In this document: piece by piece, positions 38,868 to 58,839 of the stretch
Layout: each line of letters starts with the position of its first letter
How positions within the stretch are numbered: position 1 is the stretch's first letter
Assembly: GCA_021513715.1 (NCBI GenBank)
Contig: CP084167.1
Location: 1,408,001 to 1,472,000 of the forward strand
Source: Candidatus Heimdallarchaeum endolithica
GTDB lineage: Archaea; Asgardarchaeota; Heimdallarchaeia; Heimdallarchaeales; Heimdallarchaeaceae
Direction: 5' to 3'
DNA: 64,000 nt
Position numbers and translations under genes: made by a program
Notes under the pieces: model-generated
Seen by the model: the letters and a program-made list of their open reading frames with translations, nothing else
Told to the model about the DNA's origin: nothing
The model's database searches: none

Positions 38868-40478
38868 ATGAATACATTTGGTATAATTGTCAGTTATTTG
38901 AGGAAAGGAAGATTATTTTCAGTCTCTCCAAATACTGTTTTATTACCAAACGATATTTTATTATTGTCCATCAAGAGTAATATTCAACATTTATATTTTC
39001 AAGAATGGTTGAAAGACGAGAAATTAGTTATTAATATTATTTCACCTATTGGTACAATTGTTGATAGTTTAGATGTGGATCTTAAATATACTGGACTAGA
39101 AGAGTTTTATTCTTTTGAAGTATCTGAAAATCTTTATTCAGGTGTCTATATTTTATCAATTCAAGGTAAGAATACAAAAATTAAGAAAAAAATCACTATA
39201 AAAACAAAAAGGAAATTGATCAATCACTATATTCTTACTTATGGAACTGAAATTTGTAACACAAGCGAAGATAATATTACAGAGTTAATTGTTGATGTTG
39301 TAATTCCACCAAGCATAGCGCAATTTCAAGAAGTTCAAGGAATAAAATTTAGCTTTAAACCTATTGAGAAGAAATGTGACAAGGATGGAAATTGCTGGGC
39401 AAGATTTTATTTTCCAATAGTTTATCCAAATGAGAAGATAAATTTAGAATACAAGGCTCTAGTTACTACAAGGATTATAGGATATGATGTTACAAGAATA
39501 AAAACGATAAGAGAATTAGATGAGATAAGCTATGAATTTTTTGAGAGATATACTAGAGATGAACCTTTTATTGAAAGCGATGATATTTTAATAAAAAGAG
39601 TTACACACTCACTGAAATCAGAAAATCCAATTGATAAAGCAATTAATATTCTAAGTTACGTACAAAATAACATTAATTACAAACAAGAATTGGGTGACTT
39701 TGGTGCAAAATATGCAATAAGAGCAAAAAGAGGAGACTGCACAGAATTTGCAAGTTTGTTTGTAGGAATGTGTAGAGCCGCTAAAATTCCAGCAAGACTT
39801 GCGACAAGCTTAATAAAAGAAGAAGGTATAAAATGGGAAAAACATTCTTATGCTGAATTTTTTGCCAAAGGTATTTGGTGGCAAATAGACCCCACCCTAA
39901 ATACTGATAAACAATATTTGATAAGAAATCCAGAGAATATTGTATTATTAAGGGGAAATTCACTAGCTAAAACCCATATTAAAGAAATAAGGTATTCACA
40001 TTCAGATCTAAAAAAGAGAAAAGTAAGTTTCAAAATCCATTGGAAAGTTGATGAAGTAAAGAACTTCACCCAGAATAAAGAAAAAAACAGCCATATTTGG
40101 ACTAAACAAAGTAACATATTGCATGTAGAACAAAAAGAAGAAAGAAGAGACAGCATAAGTGAAAATAAAGAAAGTTTCATTTCAATAAATGTGCCTACTT
40201 TACCTGAAGTTTCTACTGGTTCAATCTATAAGGTTCCTGTAAGATTAATTAATAACTCATCATTGGAAATATCTGGAACATTAGTTGTTTCAATTAATCG
40301 CGGGGGAATATTTATCAGTCAGCTTTACCAAAGGACTATAAAAGCAAAGTCAAATATTGGTATTGTTGTTGATATTCCTGCTCAAAGTTATTTTGGCCCT
40401 GCAAAAATCGAATTTGTTTTTCAGGATAACACTGGTTTTATATTCTGCAAATCAGAAAAAAAGATTCAATTTCAATAG
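38868..40478 (+). CDS. Transglutaminase-like cysteine protease domain protein
   Basis: GDCTEFA.LF...CRA..IPAR, H.YAEF and W..IDPT (Cys-His-Asp triad intact). Confidence 0.9.
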   Translation: MNTFGIIVSYLRKGRLFSVSPNTVLLPNDILLLSIKSNIQHLYFQEWLKDEKLVINIISPIGTIVDSLDVDLKYTGLEEFYSFEVSENLYSGVYILSIQGKNTKIKKKITIKTKRKLINHYILTYGTEICNTSEDNITELIVDVVIPPSIAQFQEVQGIKFSFKPIEKKCDKDGNCWARFYFPIVYPNEKINLEYKALVTTRIIGYDVTRIKTIRELDEISYEFFERYTRDEPFIESDDILIKRVTHSLKSENPIDKAINILSYVQNNINYKQELGDFGAKYAIRAKRGDCTEFASLFVGMCRAAKIPARLATSLIKEEGIKWEKHSYAEFFAKGIWWQIDPTLNTDKQYLIRNPENIVLLRGNSLAKTHIKEIRYSHSDLKKRKVSFKIHWKVDEVKNFTQNKEKNSHIWTKQSNILHVEQKEERRDSISENKESFISINVPTLPEVSTGSIYKVPVRLINNSSLEISGTLVVSINRGGIFISQLYQRTIKAKSNIGIVVDIPAQSYFGPAKIEFVFQDNTGFIFCKSEKKIQFQ

Positions 40479-48041: not shown

Positions 48042-48485
48042 TTATATTTGGCCCCAAGAAATAAATTTTCCATCTTTTCTTTTAACTAAAACAGAACCAA
48101 ATTTTCTCCATTGTTCTTCTCTAAATCTAATAATTTGAAATTCATCTTGAGAAGATTTCATTTTTAGTTGGAGTAACTCTGCAAGAGAAAGTTTTTTCTC
48201 GTAAAAAAGTCGAGTAATGTATTTTCCCTCTCTATCTCCTAGACTGACCTCCTTTGCCAAATTTAATAAATGTAAAACAGGAAGGTTAGAAAATAAAGGT
48301 TGGTGAGAAGAGGTATATACTGAACCTGGACAAATAGATTCATTTTTGTATTCTTCAACACATTTTTTACAAAAAATTAATTGACACCCGTTACATATTT
48401 TCCACTCTTCAAGCACAGCCTCTTTTAATGAAGATTGATTTTTACAAAAAGCACATTTCACATAGAAATCTAAAATATTAGTCAC
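48042..48485 (-). CDS. RING/PHD-like Zn-finger protein (Nse1 RING-like)
   Basis: C11-x2-C14-x16-C31-x2-C34-x4-C39-x2-C42-x9-C52(P)-x8-H61; its GTG start overlaps the upstream TGA. Confidence 0.7.
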   Translation of the reverse strand: MTNILDFYVKCAFCKNQSSLKEAVLEEWKICNGCQLIFCKKCVEEYKNESICPGSVYTSSHQPLFSNLPVLHLLNLAKEVSLGDREGKYITRLFYEKKLSLAELLQLKMKSSQDEFQIIRFREEQWRKFGSVLVKRKDGKFISWGQI

Positions 48486-49060
48486 AGCTTTTCATACTCC
48501 TCTTTAATTTTTGTCCTTTCATCTTCATCAAACTCAAGGAGAGTTCTGTAATTGTAATCTATTAGATTTGATTTTCGTTTAATATATCCTTTATACGTGA
48601 GAGATCTTATGCTCTCACTTACAATATACTCTTTTAAATAGTCATTAGATGTTAAAAACTCTTTAATCTTTTTAGTTGTAATTTTTTTCCCTGATTCTCT
48701 TAAACCCACTATTATCCCTAAAACAATTAATTCTACCTCATTTAGTTCTGGAGGAGCGAAATAGTTTGATTTTAAGCACAACCAAGTTTCATTAACTATT
48801 TTGTAATTGACTAATTCCAACCCAAGAATAGAAATAAAAATCTTATATTCTTCTAAAATATTTTCGAGTGTTGCTATATCCACCCTAGTTACTATCAACA
48901 AACCTTGTTGAGATACACCAAAAACTTCTACATTATCTTTTATCCATCTTCTAGTTAATATTGTTGTTAGTTCCCTAAATAATTCTTGTTTCTCTTTATC
49001 TGTAATTAAAGGAGACAATTTTTGTTCTTTATCTGTAATTTCATTTTTCATTTCATTCAT
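48482..49060 (-). CDS. KITE (tandem winged-helix; Nse1/Nse3/ScpB-like) protein
   Basis: LENILEEY...ILGLELV (WH-A), LNEVELIVLGIIV and L..KGYI......Y..RTLLEF (WH-B); third gene of the SMC operon. Confidence 0.7.
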   Translation of the reverse strand: MNEMKNEITDKEQKLSPLITDKEKQELFRELTTILTRRWIKDNVEVFGVSQQGLLIVTRVDIATLENILEEYKIFISILGLELVNYKIVNETWLCLKSNYFAPPELNEVELIVLGIIVGLRESGKKITTKKIKEFLTSNDYLKEYIVSESIRSLTYKGYIKRKSNLIDYNYRTLLEFDEDERTKIKEEYEKL

Positions 49061-49751
49061 CTTCTTTTTTCTTTGATGTTAAAAGGAGTGAACTCGACAA
49101 TTCTGCATCTTCTTCTGAAGAGGGTCTACAAAAACGAATTTTATCTCCGTCTGAAACAGCGATTAGTGTTTTTTCAGAAGTCATCTTTGAAAGTACTTCT
49201 AACTCAATAGAACTTAATAATTTTTCAAGTTCACTTTTTTTCAATTCTTTGTTTAACAATTTTTCCTCTAATTTTCTTTCTAAACTCATAAAATCACCAA
49301 AAGTTAAAATCTCAGACTCTAATTTTTGTTGTCCCCTTATATCCCAGAAACCATACTCATCATTAATTTGAGGATTAATTATACTATCTTCTGATTTTTC
49401 AAAATGCAATAGGGAGCTAGGGAACGTTTTTTTTCCTACTACAGAAACCAAAGGAGTAGATTTTTTTCTTACAAAATTAGAAAATGAATTTATTCTACTT
49501 TTATTTTTAAGAATATTCTCTAAATTAAGTTCCTCTCGTAATTTATACATCAAGATATAATCTTCATAGACCTCTGCATCTAATAATTTTTCCTTATTTT
49601 GAAGCAAATATTGATAAATATCTGAAGTTTGCTCTCTATCTTTTTCTGATTCATCTATTAACAGTGGAATTTTTTTTCTTAGTAATTTTTTATATTTTTT
49701 TTCAATTTCAAAAAGAGTAAGCAAGAGAACATCATAGTCTTCTTCCATCAT
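49053..49751 (-). CDS. Kleisin-like protein (Nse4/ScpA-like)
   Basis: Helical N-terminus with KKYKKLL...KEKLLDAE, a low-structure middle and a WH-like C-terminus; overlaps the SMC stop. Confidence 0.55.
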   Translation of the reverse strand: MMEEDYDVLLLTLFEIEKKYKKLLRKKIPLLIDESEKDREQTSDIYQYLLQNKEKLLDAEVYEDYILMYKLREELNLENILKNKSRINSFSNFVRKKSTPLVSVVGKKTFPSSLLHFEKSEDSIINPQINDEYGFWDIRGQQKLESEILTFGDFMSLERKLEEKLLNKELKKSELEKLLSSIELEVLSKMTSEKTLIAVSDGDKIRFCRPSSEEDAELSSSLLLTSKKKEDE

Positions 49752-52726
49752 TTACACACCTTTGTTTCTATCAGAACATTGTGATTAAAATCCTCATTTA
49801 ATTTGACATCTTCAATTCCAGGACTGATTAAAATAAACTGTGGAACAATTGACCTATTTTGTTTAGCTAAAAGATAAACAGAATAAGCAACAGAGAAGGC
49901 ATAAGTTCTGTTCTTTTTATCCAGTTTTTGAGTAAACTCATCGATTACATGTAAAGGAGAATAACTGATAAGATGAAGAGAGAGGATAATAGCTTGTGCA
50001 ATAAGAGTCTTTTCTCCTCCTGATAATTGCCGATAGTTTAAGTTTTTATTCTTTGTTTTTGCAGAAATAATTAGACTAGCTTCTTTCTCGTTTTTATAAT
50101 TACTAATAGATATCGAAATTTCTTCAAATACCTCACTTAATAGATTCTTTAGAGAACCGTTAAGATGATCTACAATCTTTTGTAACGCACTTGTCCATTG
50201 ATTTAATCTTTTTTCTATATCAACTTTCAGATTTTCTAAATGTTTATTACCTTTTTCAATTAACTCTTGTAGTTTTTCGACTCTAATTCGTTGAGCATTA
50301 ATTGCTTCAGCACTAATGTTTCCTTGAACTTGAATATATGATAACTGCCCTTTTATCTCGTGAACCTCTGAAGAGATAGTTTCGCGTTCTTCTCTTATTG
50401 TTTCAGGACGATCACCTATTTCTTCAATTTGTTTTTTTAGTTCATCAATTCTTACTTGAAGGTTTGGAACTTCAGCATTTAATTTGTTAAGTGTTGTAAG
50501 CAAATTTTCTCTAGTCTTTTTATATTGTTCAATTTCTCTTTCTAAATTATCTAACTGTTTACGCGTGAAAAAATAAACTTTTGATAATTTGTCAATTTTT
50601 TCAAGAGCAGAATTAAGCTTATCATCGAATTCGTTTAACTCTTCATGTATTTTTTTAATTAACTCCTCTTCTTGACTAATTTCTTCTTCTAATTTTTCTT
50701 TTTCCATAAACAAGTTTGTTAATTCTGTAGATACATCTGATTTTCTAGCAAATAAAAACAAATCATTATCAATTTCTCTTTTTTTACTTAATAATTCTCC
50801 ACTTTTTGAATTAAGTGTAAATTTTTCTCTAAGTAATTGTTCTTTTTTAACTTCTATCTGTGATATTTTCGCCCTTAAAACTTCAGTAGATTTGTAGGAT
50901 TTTATATCACTACCAAGCTTTACTCCTAAAACAGGAGGAGGATTAGAAAAGGCTTCTCTTGAAAGGTAGTAACTTTTACAATCAGTTGTTAAAATATTCG
51001 ATTTATATTGCTTTGCGTAATCAGTGAGAAGATTCGCACTAACTGTTGAATCAGCTATTATTGTTTTTCTAAATTTTTTAAGATATTCAAGTACTTGATA
51101 GGGAGCATCAATTAGATTTACTGCGTAATCAATTATTCCTGTTCTGTTACTGGTAATTTCTAACTTCTTTTTGTAATAGTCAGGTTTAGGGCCTTCTTGC
51201 TCTAAAACTCTCCCCACAGTTAATTTAACTGATCTATTTTGACTAAACCTAATTTGGTCAAAAATTTTCTTTGCTTCGTCATATGCTTCATAACTTATTG
51301 CTACAAAATCAAATAAAGAATAACTTATTGCTGTTTTTATCGCTTTCTCATATTTTTCAAATCCTTTTTTTATAGAAATAACTTGATAAATAGGACCAAT
51401 AATCTCATTAGCATACTTTGATTGATCAACCTTATCTCTAAATAGTTTACAATCATCTAGTCTTCTTCTTTCTTCTTGCTTTAAGTTTCCTAAAAAAAAT
51501 GAACGCTCATTTATTATATTTTGAGTCTTTTCTTTTTCTTCTTCTAATGACTGAATAGTACTGACTATTTCACTGATTCGTGTATCAATATGATCAAGTT
51601 CAGTTTTTATTTCATTAAGTTGATTCTGGAGTTGTTGTTTAGTTTTAAGTCCTTCTTCACTTGAAAATAATTCTAATTTTTTTTCTCTTTTTTCAATTTC
51701 ATAAATCCTGTTATATTTACTTTGAATTAGTCTCTCTTTTTCCTCTAACATACCTTTCTTGTAAGTTGATGTAGACCTTAAAGAATCGACTAACTTATTT
51801 AACTGCTCTTTTTCTTTCTCTATTTCATTAAATTGAACCAGAATAGATTCTTTCTCTTGGTGTAATTTTATTTCTTCTTTTTGATTTGACTCGATTTTAT
51901 TTTTTACTTTTTCTATTTCTCTTAAATGATTTTGAAAAACTCTATCTGCTTCTTCAAAATCATACCATACTAACTCTCTTGTAACCATTTCAAGCCTTTT
52001 TATCAAATTATTCTTCTTTGCAATTAAATCATAATCTTCTTCCATTTGTTGAAGTTTAGTCTTTTCCTTCTCTAGTTGCATCACCAGAGGAGAATGTTCT
52101 CGTTGCATTTGATTTAGTTTTTTCTTCGAGTCAAAATATGATTGATAAATCTCATTTAGACCTGTAGCAACAAGTAAGGTTTCTAACTTTTTATGTGGAG
52201 AACCTTCAGCAAAAGCGTTCAAATAGCCTTCTTCTGTAAAATTCAACATTGTATCCTCAAATATTCCTATTTGTTTCATGAGGGCTTGTATTTGTCTCTT
52301 TGTTACAATTTTTTCATTTCCATCTAATGATTTGATCTTCCTAATTGATTGATTTTTTCTGATTTCAAGCTCAACAATGAAAGAATCTTTATTATTTACA
52401 AAGGATTCAATATCCAAATCAGATGATTGAAATAATCTCCTTTCACCTAACAAAGGATTTGAAATAAAAAGCTGAATTATGGCAGACTCACCAAAAGAAC
52501 CGATTAGTTCCTCTTTTTTACCCAAAGCAACTCTAGTAGGTGTATGACCAATTACTAAAATTAATGCTTCCAAAATTTGGCTTTTTCCACTCCCATTAGC
52601 TCCAGAAATGACAATTAATGGTTTTTCCATCAGATCTAGTTCAGTACATTTGTGCATCTTAAAATTTCTAATTATTAGTTTATTGAAAACAAATTTACTA
52701 GAACTTTCTGAAACATTAATTGTCAT
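49748..52726 (-). CDS. SMC5/6-like ATPase (992 aa)
   Basis: IRNFK.H, Walker A GANGSGKS, two long coiled coils, hinge IIGPIYQVISI...AIKTAI...FV, signature LSGGEK and Walker B/D-loop VIDEFTQKLD..NR. Confidence 0.9.
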   Translation of the reverse strand: MTINVSESSSKFVFNKLIIRNFKMHKCTELDLMEKPLIVISGANGSGKSQILEALILVIGHTPTRVALGKKEELIGSFGESAIIQLFISNPLLGERRLFQSSDLDIESFVNNKDSFIVELEIRKNQSIRKIKSLDGNEKIVTKRQIQALMKQIGIFEDTMLNFTEEGYLNAFAEGSPHKKLETLLVATGLNEIYQSYFDSKKKLNQMQREHSPLVMQLEKEKTKLQQMEEDYDLIAKKNNLIKRLEMVTRELVWYDFEEADRVFQNHLREIEKVKNKIESNQKEEIKLHQEKESILVQFNEIEKEKEQLNKLVDSLRSTSTYKKGMLEEKERLIQSKYNRIYEIEKREKKLELFSSEEGLKTKQQLQNQLNEIKTELDHIDTRISEIVSTIQSLEEEKEKTQNIINERSFFLGNLKQEERRRLDDCKLFRDKVDQSKYANEIIGPIYQVISIKKGFEKYEKAIKTAISYSLFDFVAISYEAYDEAKKIFDQIRFSQNRSVKLTVGRVLEQEGPKPDYYKKKLEITSNRTGIIDYAVNLIDAPYQVLEYLKKFRKTIIADSTVSANLLTDYAKQYKSNILTTDCKSYYLSREAFSNPPPVLGVKLGSDIKSYKSTEVLRAKISQIEVKKEQLLREKFTLNSKSGELLSKKREIDNDLFLFARKSDVSTELTNLFMEKEKLEEEISQEEELIKKIHEELNEFDDKLNSALEKIDKLSKVYFFTRKQLDNLEREIEQYKKTRENLLTTLNKLNAEVPNLQVRIDELKKQIEEIGDRPETIREERETISSEVHEIKGQLSYIQVQGNISAEAINAQRIRVEKLQELIEKGNKHLENLKVDIEKRLNQWTSALQKIVDHLNGSLKNLLSEVFEEISISISNYKNEKEASLIISAKTKNKNLNYRQLSGGEKTLIAQAIILSLHLISYSPLHVIDEFTQKLDKKNRTYAFSVAYSVYLLAKQNRSIVPQFILISPGIEDVKLNEDFNHNVLIETKVCK

Positions 52727-56081: not shown

Positions 56082-56620
56082 TTACAATAAAGATTTTAGA
56101 GCTTTTCTATAATCATTAGTAGCTTCTTCAGGCATTGTTCCATTGATGAATATTCCTAGACTAGACTCTACAGCACCAAGAATTTTTAGTGACTGCTTAT
56201 TTCTCTGTGGACTGTGGAGTTTAAAATACATATGATAAATATTAGGACTTTCAGGAAAATTGAAAACTTTTTGATGAAGAGAAAGAGAATAACTTATTTC
56301 TTTACCAAATATTACAAATAAACTTTTAACTAGCTTTGGCAATAAGTTTGCAAAAGATACTAGCTCTTCTTGTCTACTCTCTTCCAATTTACTATAGCAC
56401 CTTTTTGGATAAATATATAGATCATAAGCATATTGAGCTGAAAAAGGAACAACTGCCATCACAAACTCATTTTCAAAAACAACCCTTAAATCAGTTTTTT
56501 TCTCAATTTCTAAATATTTACATATCATGCAAGCATTTTTTTATTTAAAAAATTTCCAATCTTTCTTAGTTCATTTTGAACAGTATGAGGAACAAATGAG
56601 AAAGCATAAATTTGCCCATG
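56082..56620 (-). pseudogene. galT: galT 3' fragment (after the TnpB insertion, with an additional 1-nt deletion)
   Basis: Resumes as H-G-Q-I-Y-A-F; frameshift in the A7 run (T7 at 56536-56542); then C.IC, VPF.A.Y.Y, YH.Y and G.E...G.FIN...PE.A. Confidence 0.88.
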
Positions 56621-56820
56621 AGTTAATTTTTTGTACAATTTTCTCCTACTACGTCAGTGGAAGAATACAAACGCTAAAACAGATGTTTGAGCATACTGAC
56701 ATCATCTAGGAATCGTGGGACGCATAAAGAAGAGTAGAACTCTTCACTCCACGAGTACTAAGTATTCTACCATTATGGTATAATAGTACATAGGTCTATT
56801 TCAACCACTGGTTGAGACCC
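56621..56820 (-). ncRNA. Putative omegaRNA (reRNA) scaffold of TnpB
   Basis: Nested stems 3' of tnpB on the minus strand: TCAACC/GGTTGA, GTACTA/TAGTAC with TACCAT/ATGGTA, TCGTGG/CCACGA with GAAGAGT/ACTCTTC, and TCCTA/TAGGA with GTCAGT/ACTGAC; ends at the element boundary. Confidence 0.7.
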
Positions 56821-58310
56821 CGGAAGGAAGTATAAAAGGTGAGACTAAAGTGTTGTCCAGTAAGATAATCAACTAGTGTAGATGCTCGGGGACGAAAAAG
56901 AAAACGAAGAAACAATTTCCCGATGTTGATTGCACAGGTAAGGTCAGAGTGAAGAGTATAATGGCAATGAGAACAATAAACAAGACCTCTAACAGGTCGA
57001 ATAGTCTTTCGTCCACATTTTGAGCAAAGAGAAGAGGTAAGATATTCCTGTAAGGTGAGGATACGTTCGGGTTCTAACCCATTTAGAAGACACATTCGTC
57101 GAAGAAGAGTAACTATTTGGTAGTAATTCCACGGGTGAACCTTTTTACGAGTAAAACGGGTAGAGGAGTTCTGTGGTCTGTAGTCTTGATTCATTACTTT
57201 TTTTCTTAATTTCGAGTGTACTCCCTTGGGGTAACCAACAACAACGACTAAATTATAATCCTGTGTAAGTTCAACAATATCTTTCCACAACTCATTAATA
57301 AAAGCATATAAATAAGCATGAGAGAGCGTCTGATATCTTTTTCTTAATTTTTTTAATGTTTGATATCCTTTATTGCTTCTTTTGTCTTTACATGTATTCT
57401 TCTTTTTTGCAAGTTTTCGTTGCAATCTTCTTATTTTCTGTTGATAGATATACTTCCTTTTTTTCCATTCTTTCATTTTCCAGAAGAAAATATGATTGGG
57501 AGATATTTTACCTGTTGATGTTAATAACACTCCTGCTCCAGGTATTTTTTCTCCCAGATCTATTCCCAGCACAGCTGGAGGAAGAAGAGAAGGGTCAACT
57601 TTTTTTTTCTTGTAGAGATCTGCTTGAGGAATAATTGTTATCTGAAAATTTACCCACCAACTGTTTTTTTGTGAGTTATATTTTAATTCTAGACTTTTTA
57701 CTTGTCCTTTTCTTATTTCTTTTTGGTGATATTCACTCATTTCTAGTGGTATCCATAGTCTTCGATGTGTTCGTTTTTTTCTTTTTTGTGTGTCTAATGA
57801 GTCTCTTATCCCTACCCAGCAACGAGAAAGAGTGTTTTTCCCTTTAGGCAAATGTTCTATGATAAATCTATTTTTATTGATTAGTTGTTTTCTTGTTCGT
57901 TTTACTGGTGGTAAAATATATCCTTTTTTTCTTTTTCTATTCTTTTTTTTGTTATATCCTTGTTCATAAAGTTGTACTGCTACATCTCTACACTCTTGAA
58001 ATTCATCGTGAGAACAATTAGGAAACTTTTTTTTGAGATCATAGGGTACAACTGTCCTTTTTTTCTTATTTGTTTTCTTTGTTGTTGTTAGTGTTAGTTC
58101 ATCTAACTTGCCTTTATGCACTTTTAGTCTTATCTCTCCTTGTTTGCTTATTTTTCTTATTACTTTTTCTTCTTCTTTTCTTATTATTTTTACATATTCT
58201 TCTATTATTCTAGTATCTCTTCCTGTTATCTTTCTCATTCTATCTTTTTTGAACTTCGTTAATTTTTCTGTTTTTACTCTTACTCTTAATGTTCTCACTA
58301 TTTTCTCCAT
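56796..58310 (-). CDS. tnpB: RNA-guided endonuclease TnpB with rearranged RuvC-II
   Basis: RuvC-I VLGIDLG; RuvC-II position VVVGYP (no Glu); alternative Glu in QEYLTSSLCSKC; CSHC; RuvC-III HSD...AINI. Confidence 0.9.
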   Translation of the reverse strand: MEKIVRTLRVRVKTEKLTKFKKDRMRKITGRDTRIIEEYVKIIRKEEEKVIRKISKQGEIRLKVHKGKLDELTLTTTKKTNKKKRTVVPYDLKKKFPNCSHDEFQECRDVAVQLYEQGYNKKKNRKRKKGYILPPVKRTRKQLINKNRFIIEHLPKGKNTLSRCWVGIRDSLDTQKRKKRTHRRLWIPLEMSEYHQKEIRKGQVKSLELKYNSQKNSWWVNFQITIIPQADLYKKKKVDPSLLPPAVLGIDLGEKIPGAGVLLTSTGKISPNHIFFWKMKEWKKRKYIYQQKIRRLQRKLAKKKNTCKDKRSNKGYQTLKKLRKRYQTLSHAYLYAFINELWKDIVELTQDYNLVVVVGYPKGVHSKLRKKVMNQDYRPQNSSTRFTRKKVHPWNYYQIVTLLRRMCLLNGLEPERILTLQEYLTSSLCSKCGRKTIRPVRGLVYCSHCHYTLHSDLTCAINIGKLFLRFLFRPRASTLVDYLTGQHFSLTFYTSFRGLNQWLK

Positions 58311-58403
58311 TTTCTAATCCTTTTTCTTCTTCACTTTCTTTTCTCTATTTATTAATTAAGCAATTTATTTAAAAACCTAAAGAATTTATACAAAAAATTT
58401 TTT

Positions 58404-58839
58404 CATGGGGGTGAAGAATTGAAGCACCTACATCTTTTCCAAAATTTTCGAACGGAAGAATATATTTTATTTTTTTATCTTCTTTTAGCTGTTTTGTTGC
58501 TTCTATCCATTTTTCAAAAATTGAGAGGATTTCATCTACCTTTAACTCATGAAATTTCTTACCATGGTCAGCACTATAAACTAGAACTTCACATTTACCA
58601 TAAGCACTTTTAGACTTATACAACTGATCCTCTTCTTTGCTCCAATAATCTACCTCTAAAGATAAGCTCGGGAATTTATTATCCAATCGAATAGGTTTAT
58701 TGATAAGGTCTTTGACTTCCTCAGAACCTTTACAAAAAGGGCAGAAATCCTTTTTCCTATCAGGTCTTCTTTGTCTTTTGGGTGCATAAATGATCCATTC
58801 ATCAAAAAAATAATTGTACCTAAGTTCACCCTCTGTCAT
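58404..58839 (-). pseudogene. galT: galT 5' fragment
   Basis: ELRYN, R..RP, CPFC, NKFP, G.CEV..YS..H and FENFG..VGAS..HPH, truncated at the insertion. Confidence 0.92.

Follow-up and report, generated by a model that had tools for sequence, protein, structure and literature searches.

SMC proteins related to SMC5/6 have been reported in archaea (Yoshinaga and Inagaki, PMC8665677), and three-gene SMC-kleisin-kite operons of the TACK and Asgard groups are already described in passages of another study (van Hooff et al., 10.1101/2024.01.07.573240). According to the same passages, RING domains are absent from archaeal kites and the RING of Nse1 is a eukaryotic innovation, and Table S3 of that source lists, for a Heimdallarchaeia genome of the UBA460 family, a single SMC5/6-related SMC, a single Nse1/3-related kite and no subunits of condensin type. 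Here we describe an operon found in a window of 64,000 nucleotides (the whole stretch of DNA that was analysed) from the Asgard archaeon Candidatus Heimdallarchaeum endolithica (contig CP084167.1, positions 1,408,001 to 1,472,000), in which genes for an SMC5/6-related SMC ATPase (gene 1), a likely kleisin (gene 2) and a likely KITE (gene 3) are followed by a fourth gene encoding a RING-like zinc protein (gene 4). The genome is a single contig of 3.33 Mb, and UBA460 is presumably the family to which it belongs.

The operon to which gene 4 belongs is a member of the published archaeal class, similar to a simplified SMC5/6, and not the eukaryotic complex itself; gene 4 is the new element, and its finger is no closer to those of Nse1 and Nse2 than to other RINGs. 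With the known archaeal operons the locus shares an SMC5/6-related SMC, a kleisin, an Nse1/3-like kite and a presumed homodimeric build, whereas those operons have three genes, and no Nse4-related kleisin is given as detected in the UBA460-family genome in the passages concerned (10.1101/2024.01.07.573240). Neither the fourth gene nor a ubiquitin-like (Ubl) cassette is mentioned in the searched passages of that source, and a wider literature search, covering few subscription papers, found no description of the fourth gene or of its Ubl link. With eukaryotic SMC5/6 the operon has in common an SMC head with an H-loop Pro, a hinge, a short kleisin, KITEs and a RING-shaped zinc subunit that is placed on the KITE/kleisin module, here by modelling. 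The eukaryotic complex differs in being built on an SMC5-SMC6 heterodimer and an Nse1-Nse3 hetero-KITE, against one SMC and one KITE gene here, and in carrying a RING of C4HC3 pattern (PMC8750328) fused to Nse1, against a separate C7H finger here; Nse2-like arm-binding helices and an Nse5/6 gene are missing from our operon, and the Q-loop Gln of its SMC is lost.

The order SMC-kleisin-KITE-zinc finger is found again in eight Asgard families (designated below by working numbers such as f7), far beyond chance. A first-pass annotation, made from the letters alone, had drawn four minus-strand open reading frames (ORFs) behind a single TATA box, and these stand as drawn, with successive stops and starts overlapping by 4, 8 and 4 nt (Table 1); the comparison of gene order among Asgard genomes that it proposed has now shown synteny kept across the eight families. 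In a survey of 400 Asgard genomes for full-length gene 4 homologues and close KITE homologues, the two occurred in an identical set of 62 genomes, gene 4 lying directly behind the KITE gene in 60 of them (a contig end cuts one, and the gene lies elsewhere in the other). Because these 62 genomes are kin, the number of independent co-occurrences is nearer eight. At all 20 of the junctions inspected a stop and a restart part the two genes, with gaps of -4 to +38, which rules out a frameshifted KITE-RING fusion; longer fused forms were sought as well and none came up, though this counts as weak evidence. Within the host's own family the operon is present in 27 of 30 other genomes, in a stable neighbourhood, and gene 4 is not present in the other Asgard SMC-kleisin-KITE operons that were read. 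No relatives were found in viral contigs (one pattern searched), in plasmids or in a metagenome scan, and one high-GC homologue (P0063) lies on a 1.4-kb contig with no KITE upstream.

The SMC, whose closest relative is 86% identical and comes from the congeneric Ca. Heimdallarchaeum aukensis PM71, has its Walker A motif at residue 42, the signature LSGGE at 901 and Walker B at 927. Its hinge at 441-565 scores 22.9 bits with PF06470 (cut-off 22.5) and no CxxC occurs anywhere in the protein, in agreement with the earlier reading of a true hinge instead of a Rad50-type zinc hook. The H-loop residue is Pro, as in SMC6 and the wider Asgard group, whereas bacterial Smc and Rad50 have His. When the family profile was compared with PDB, SMC6 (E 4e-37) and SMC5 (6e-26) led, followed by SMC4 (3e-21), Pyrococcus-type Smc (6e-15) and Rad50 (5e-8). 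In a maximum-likelihood tree of SMC heads (68 rows, 307 columns, LG+C20+F+G4; two eukaryotic SMC6 included), the operon-bearing SMCs and two strays form one clade (99/99), which joins a group with the two SMC6 sequences (98/89); that group is nested in a wider Asgard SMC5/6-related group (97/87) and stands apart from canonical Smc/SMC2 (100/99) and from Rad50/ASRP (97/91). The SMC5/6-like character that had been proposed for the head is thus recovered by both tree and profile. The SMC does not group with Rad50 in the tree, and hinge, tree and motifs alike disfavour Rad50, ASRP and canonical Smc as its identity, although approximately unbiased (AU) tests are too weak to reject these placements.

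The position of eukaryotic SMC6 inside this group bears on ancestry. In the best tree it branches with the SMCs of f14, f5, f24 and f25 (99/96), whose operons have no zinc-finger gene, and the operon-bearing clade is only the sister of that assemblage; as direct sister of SMC6 it is not rejected by the AU test (p=0.14). Of the first-pass notion of a homodimeric proto-SMC5/6 holocomplex the SMC5/6-related operon stands, and the ancestry that 'proto' implies is an overstatement. In the loci nearest to SMC6 in the tree (L157, L158 and L172, of f24 and f25) a different SMC5/6-related operon is followed by a gene for the primase large subunit and a ThiF/E1-like gene. Sporadic SMC relatives at L153/L130 and L154 lie amid AAA, HD-domain and Hsp70-like genes, contexts that are possibly defence islands.

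Other SMC systems fit the locus less well. Wadjet (JetABCD/MksBEFG) and Smc-ScpAB share the SMC-kleisin-KITE core in one operon, and Wadjet too has a fourth gene, but this is a TOPRIM nuclease in place of a zinc finger, and PADLOC returned no JetA, JetB or JetD match. From Smc-ScpAB the operon is set apart by an SMC that falls outside canonical Smc in the tree and by the lack of any ScpA or ScpB match. Rad50/SbcC and ASRP have a zinc hook or no hinge, and an Mre11 partner, whereas here a hinge is present and a Mre11-Rad50-like pair is encoded elsewhere in the genome, apart from the operon.

The gene 2 model (predicted local distance difference test score, pLDDT, 77) consists of three N-terminal helices (2-97), a poorly ordered linker (about 98-150) and a C-terminal winged helix (about 151-208), an architecture that makes it a likely kleisin. 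In a wide structure search chain F of 7QCD, the Smc5/6 holocomplex, aligned over 1-232 (Z 8.5, 156 residues, root-mean-square deviation (rmsd) 22) and was the only whole-model match among those listed; we take this chain to be Nse4. The full-length Foldseek rows 6yvu_C, 7qcd_F and 7tve_G, presumably Brn1 and Nse4 chains, are weak (E 0.6-0.7). Members of the gene 3 family match MAGE, SMC_Nse1 and MksE at E 0.001-0.002, under the Pfam cut-offs, and the Atlas leads are MAGE (0.83) and DUF4194 (0.79), so that a KITE of Nse1/Nse3-like archaeal type appears likely from these family matches. Both calls combine weak scores with position in the operon; the earlier labels of an Nse4-like protein and a KITE are upheld to the extent that the model has a kleisin architecture and the family matches, though weak, are KITE-like. 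A second, Nse1-like KITE was considered for gene 2 and rejected, as its Nse1 match fell from E 0.01 to 0.23 with a deeper alignment and the model has one winged helix. The Nse4_C match of the kleisin at L154 (E 0.0013) is not transferable to gene 2.

The zinc ligands of gene 4 are C11, C14, C31, C34, C39, C42, C52 and H61, a C7H set for a two-zinc cross-brace, and Heimdallarchaeaceae keep all eight. Among 31 homologues C11, W28, C31, C34, C42, C52, H61 and W126 are kept, while His or Asp can stand in for C14 and Asp for C39; to judge from the sequences, these two would share one site of the cross-brace. Residues 11-70 are modelled at pLDDT > 90, and in three fold searches most top rows were RING or U-box chains (best Z 5.6). 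RNF4 superposes with an rmsd of 2.4 over 58 residues and is also the best sequence match (E 1.5e-4), and a Cys-Pro stands behind the seventh ligand in 27 of the 31. SP-RING chains reach Z 4.1-4.6, level with other RINGs, and the model has no N-terminal helices. The fold searches do not have the Nse1 RING among their best 50 rows, and the 25 families listed for the 31 members do not include the Pfam RING families specific to Nse1 and Nse2, neither of which excludes kinship; PF07574 matched nothing in the genome nor in the controls and is hence uninformative. Gene 4 thus encodes a RING-like cross-brace subunit, which may act in ubiquitin-type ligation. What had been annotated as a dedicated Zn-finger subunit has the RING shape and the fixed neighbour, but its ligand pattern is C7H and not the C4HC3 of Nse1.

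Behind the finger follow a predicted KITE-docking helix (85-95) and a conserved three-strand sheet (119-146), the most invariant part of the protein (window 48045-48130), which begins with W-R/K-K/R-F/Y-G and which we take to be reminiscent of the WRKY motif. The same finger was also seen at the C-terminal end of helical proteins of 240-360 aa that belong to no known family (P0070, P0073, P0075, P0078, P0081); there it is preceded by unrelated helical regions, and none of 56 library matches contained a KITE domain.

An ESMFold2 model of two KITEs, the kleisin and the zinc protein scored 0.70, against 0.41 for the best control; the 0.70 mark is reached by 58 of 80 solved complexes and by 2 of 110 mismatched pairs, counts that apply only roughly here. 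At least 44% of contacts agree between runs, and the partner has a pLDDT of at least 58. In the model, helix 85-95 of gene 4 packs against one KITE at its first winged helix (26-37, 49-59) and against the other at its linker (99-103), and the RING stays outside the confident interface. Nearly all 31 rows have hydrophobic residues at the docking positions 89, 90, 93, 94 and 95 (F94 in 29), and shorter zinc paralogues unlinked to a KITE have neither the docking helix nor the C-terminal sheet. The complex modelling suggested in the first-pass annotation hence supports, as a prediction, the view that gene 4 binds to the KITE/kleisin module. MAGE-RING E3 complexes and Nse1-Nse3 likewise join a KITE/MAGE-type tandem winged helix to a RING-shaped protein; they differ in that docking here is predicted to run through a short helix onto a KITE homodimer.

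In several other families the operon adjoins genes of a Ubl pathway. The f7 operon continues into JAB, E1 (ThiF), a Ubl-like ORF of 103 aa with QVG as its last residues, an E2-like gene whose HPR motif is followed by an invariant Cys, and a 98-aa ORF. JAB and E1 stand directly behind the zinc gene in f8, and in f29 JAB does so, followed by an E1-like gene. In f12 the SMC is divergent from a group made up of Ubl, E2, the 98-aa ORF, a second zinc-finger paralogue and a transglutaminase, after which come E1 and JAB. With a YukD match at E 0.015, the Ubl assignment is a weak one. This private E2 occurs in 24 of 251 genomes, in f7, f8 and f12 only, and all three families carry the operon; in two of the three the private set is adjacent to it. 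Ubiquitin, E1 and E2 genes of another kind lie in the Heimdallarchaeum genome 250-420 kb from the operon (E1 at about 1.707 Mb of the contig, E2 at about 1.876 Mb). These ubiquitin and E1 genes (L143, G000:C1:1704000-1712000) adjoin genes that look, from their sequence, ESCRT-III/Vps4-like and UEV. Eight kb downstream of the operon lies the genome's best match to the transglutaminase-like gene that follows the second zinc-finger paralogue close to the Ubl cassettes in relatives; it is possibly a remnant of the larger neighbourhood and may belong to the same system. The simplest reading is that the Ubl cassette was lost in Heimdallarchaeaceae and the zinc subunit kept with the SMC complex. As a separate observation, the E2-like protein, the 98-aa ORF and the second zinc-finger paralogue (L113:11724-12796, L113:19105-19482, L119:7645-9066) repeat hydrophobic V/I-K/R-I-I/L stretches in their charged tails, which by their letters resemble SUMO-interacting motifs.

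A picture in which gene 4 is the ligase-like subunit of an SMC5/6-type machine has to be held against several results that weigh on the other side. The head tree was built without SMC5, ClsN and JetC sequences, and over its 307 columns placements with Rad50/ASRP (p=0.10) and with canonical Smc (p=0.09) both survive the AU tests. The two close SMC relatives at L153 and L154 have no zinc gene and differ in gene context. The Q-loop Gln is replaced by Glu in the Heimdallarchaeum SMC (residues 163-167, window 52223-52240), most members of the operon-bearing clade have Glu, Ala or Lys in its place, whereas the sister clades retain it, and because of this loss the ATPase may behave differently. The kleisin and KITE calls have Foldseek E values above 0.3 and pass no Pfam cut-off. 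The finger resembles RING, U-box, SP-RING and ZZ with no clear winner (Foldseek E 0.07 or worse), ZZ domains tying with RINGs (Z 4.7 vs 5.2), and the private E2 was not found in Heimdallarchaeum's family, f2 or f4 in the 251-genome search; in this genome neither private E2 nor private Ubl was detected. The ZZ tie and the retention of gene 4 in those three families also speak for a non-catalytic cross-brace, ZZ-like or structural, that would serve as loader, DNA or peptide reader or regulator, any Ubl tagging proceeding without gene 4 as E3. To these can be added an eighth ligand that is a distant His with no CxxC, the lack of a clear linchpin residue, the invariance of the C-terminal sheet over that of the finger, and the Ubl-E2 unit of f12, which holds the second zinc-finger paralogue and not gene 4. 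Set against the dominance of RING and U-box chains, the RNF4 match, the recurrent Cys-Pro and the place of gene 4 directly 5' of JAB-E1 in f7, f8 and f29, such a module is conceivable, and we regard it with some doubt.

A Wadjet-like or SMC5/6-like complex acting against plasmids or viruses, and not in housekeeping, would accord with the patchy spread over Asgard families, with the restriction of viral DNA by eukaryotic SMC5/6, with the island-like contexts of the sporadic relatives L153 and L154, and with the ubiquitin-like cassettes, which are frequent in prokaryotic defence. We consider it improbable: no JetD-like nuclease was seen in about 45 loci read, the JetC matches of PADLOC are weak coiled-coil matches, the operon is near-constant within the family, and it supplies the only hinge-SMC of the genome. 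A further proposal would see in the KITE and its adjacent RING gene an Nse1 before fusion, and in this operon type the direct precursor of SMC5/6. The gene order does equal the domain order of Nse1 and the model seats the zinc protein on the KITE dimer, but the contact runs through a helix after the RING, which is followed by a 60-residue part for which we know of no Nse1 counterpart, and the genes are parted at every junction inspected. Passages of van Hooff et al. (10.1101/2024.01.07.573240) count the Nse1 RING as a eukaryotic gain, and the AU test leaves a sister relationship to SMC6 standing; against this, the ligands are C7H where Nse1 has C4HC3 (PMC8750328), and the best tree places SMC6 with SMCs that lack the zinc gene. 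We find the proposal hard to favour, and on present evidence descent of Nse1 directly from this operon is unlikely.

The remaining features of the locus concern its promoter and surroundings. The TTTATATA box is unchanged in H. aukensis, and most other family members checked have a TTTAAATA-type box at -40 to -53; the transcript is probably near-leaderless. In H. aukensis a 2,747-bp tandem duplication with copies 99.9% identical (L033:8918-14401) runs from the end of the gene upstream, through the promoter, to codon 214 of the SMC, and is either a recent event or an assembly artefact. In f2 an opposite-strand gene for the TATA-binding protein sits between SMC and kleisin (L051:5765-6346). Elsewhere in the window (56082-58839) galT is seemingly split into an N-terminal part (58369-58839) and a C-terminal part (56082-56528), between which lies a gene for a 504-aa TnpB/Cas12f-like protein (56796-58310), probably an IS200/605-type insertion.

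Table 1. Operon and associated features, in window positions (HMM, hidden Markov model)
Feature	Position	Strand	Remarks
TATA box TTTATATA	52761-52754	-	start 35 nt 5' of SMC ATG; putative promoter
Gene 1, SMC ATPase, SMC5/6-related	49748-52726	-	992 aa
Gene 2, likely kleisin	49053-49751	-	232 aa
Gene 3, likely KITE (tandem winged helix, Nse1/Nse3-like archaeal type)	48482-49060	-	192 aa
Gene 4, RING-like zinc subunit	48042-48485	-	147 aa, GTG start
Transglutaminase-like gene	38868-40478	+	tblastn E 4e-41, HMM E 3e-55, PF01841

The genome contains no hinge domain besides that of this SMC; it holds one hinge-SMC and one KITE of the operon's type, and ScpA, ScpB and a canonical Smc were not found in it, which agrees with the entry for the UBA460-family genome in Table S3 of van Hooff et al. 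(10.1101/2024.01.07.573240). ScpB was over the cut-off in 0 of 31 family genomes, and in genomes of f7 and f8 a canonical Smc is present in addition. Since the search revealed no second SMC complex and no nuclease gene is attached, housekeeping is likelier here than defence, and of the two roles first put forward we favour genome maintenance over the silencing of extrachromosomal DNA. We think it probable that a four-subunit homodimeric complex of SMC5/6 type is the main SMC machine of chromosome maintenance in Heimdallarchaeaceae. From what is known of the family, two SMC copies would dimerise at the hinge; the kleisin, of modelled architecture, would join neck and cap by means of the helices at its N-terminus and the winged helix at its C-terminus, and a KITE homodimer would bind the kleisin linker and clamp DNA in an ATP-driven cycle. 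For the zinc protein the prediction is that the amphipathic helix 85-95 sits against the first winged helix of one KITE and against the linker of its partner copy, so that the RING remains free. Synteny and co-occurrence suggest that the ancestral RING domain most likely served a private JAB/E1/Ubl/E2 set as E3-like adaptor, the set tagging the complex or chromatin; in Heimdallarchaeaceae, where the private E2 would have been lost, the zinc protein may use the housekeeping ubiquitin E2 or be non-catalytic.

More tentatively, and with rather less confidence than would be needed to assert it, we propose that several Asgard lineages have an SMC5/6-type complex with a KITE-docked RING-like E3 and a private Ubl cascade, so that coupling to Ubl ligation would already have existed in archaea, as either the source of the Nse1/Nse2 activities or an independent parallel to them, and that in Heimdallarchaeum this complex is the sole handler of chromosomes. 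If this is true, the view of RING/SUMO ligase coupling as a eukaryotic addition to SMC5/6 would be called into question. A four-protein homodimeric complex of SMC5/6 type, in a lineage seemingly without any other SMC complex, could be reconstituted to find out what the basic task of SMC5/6 is.

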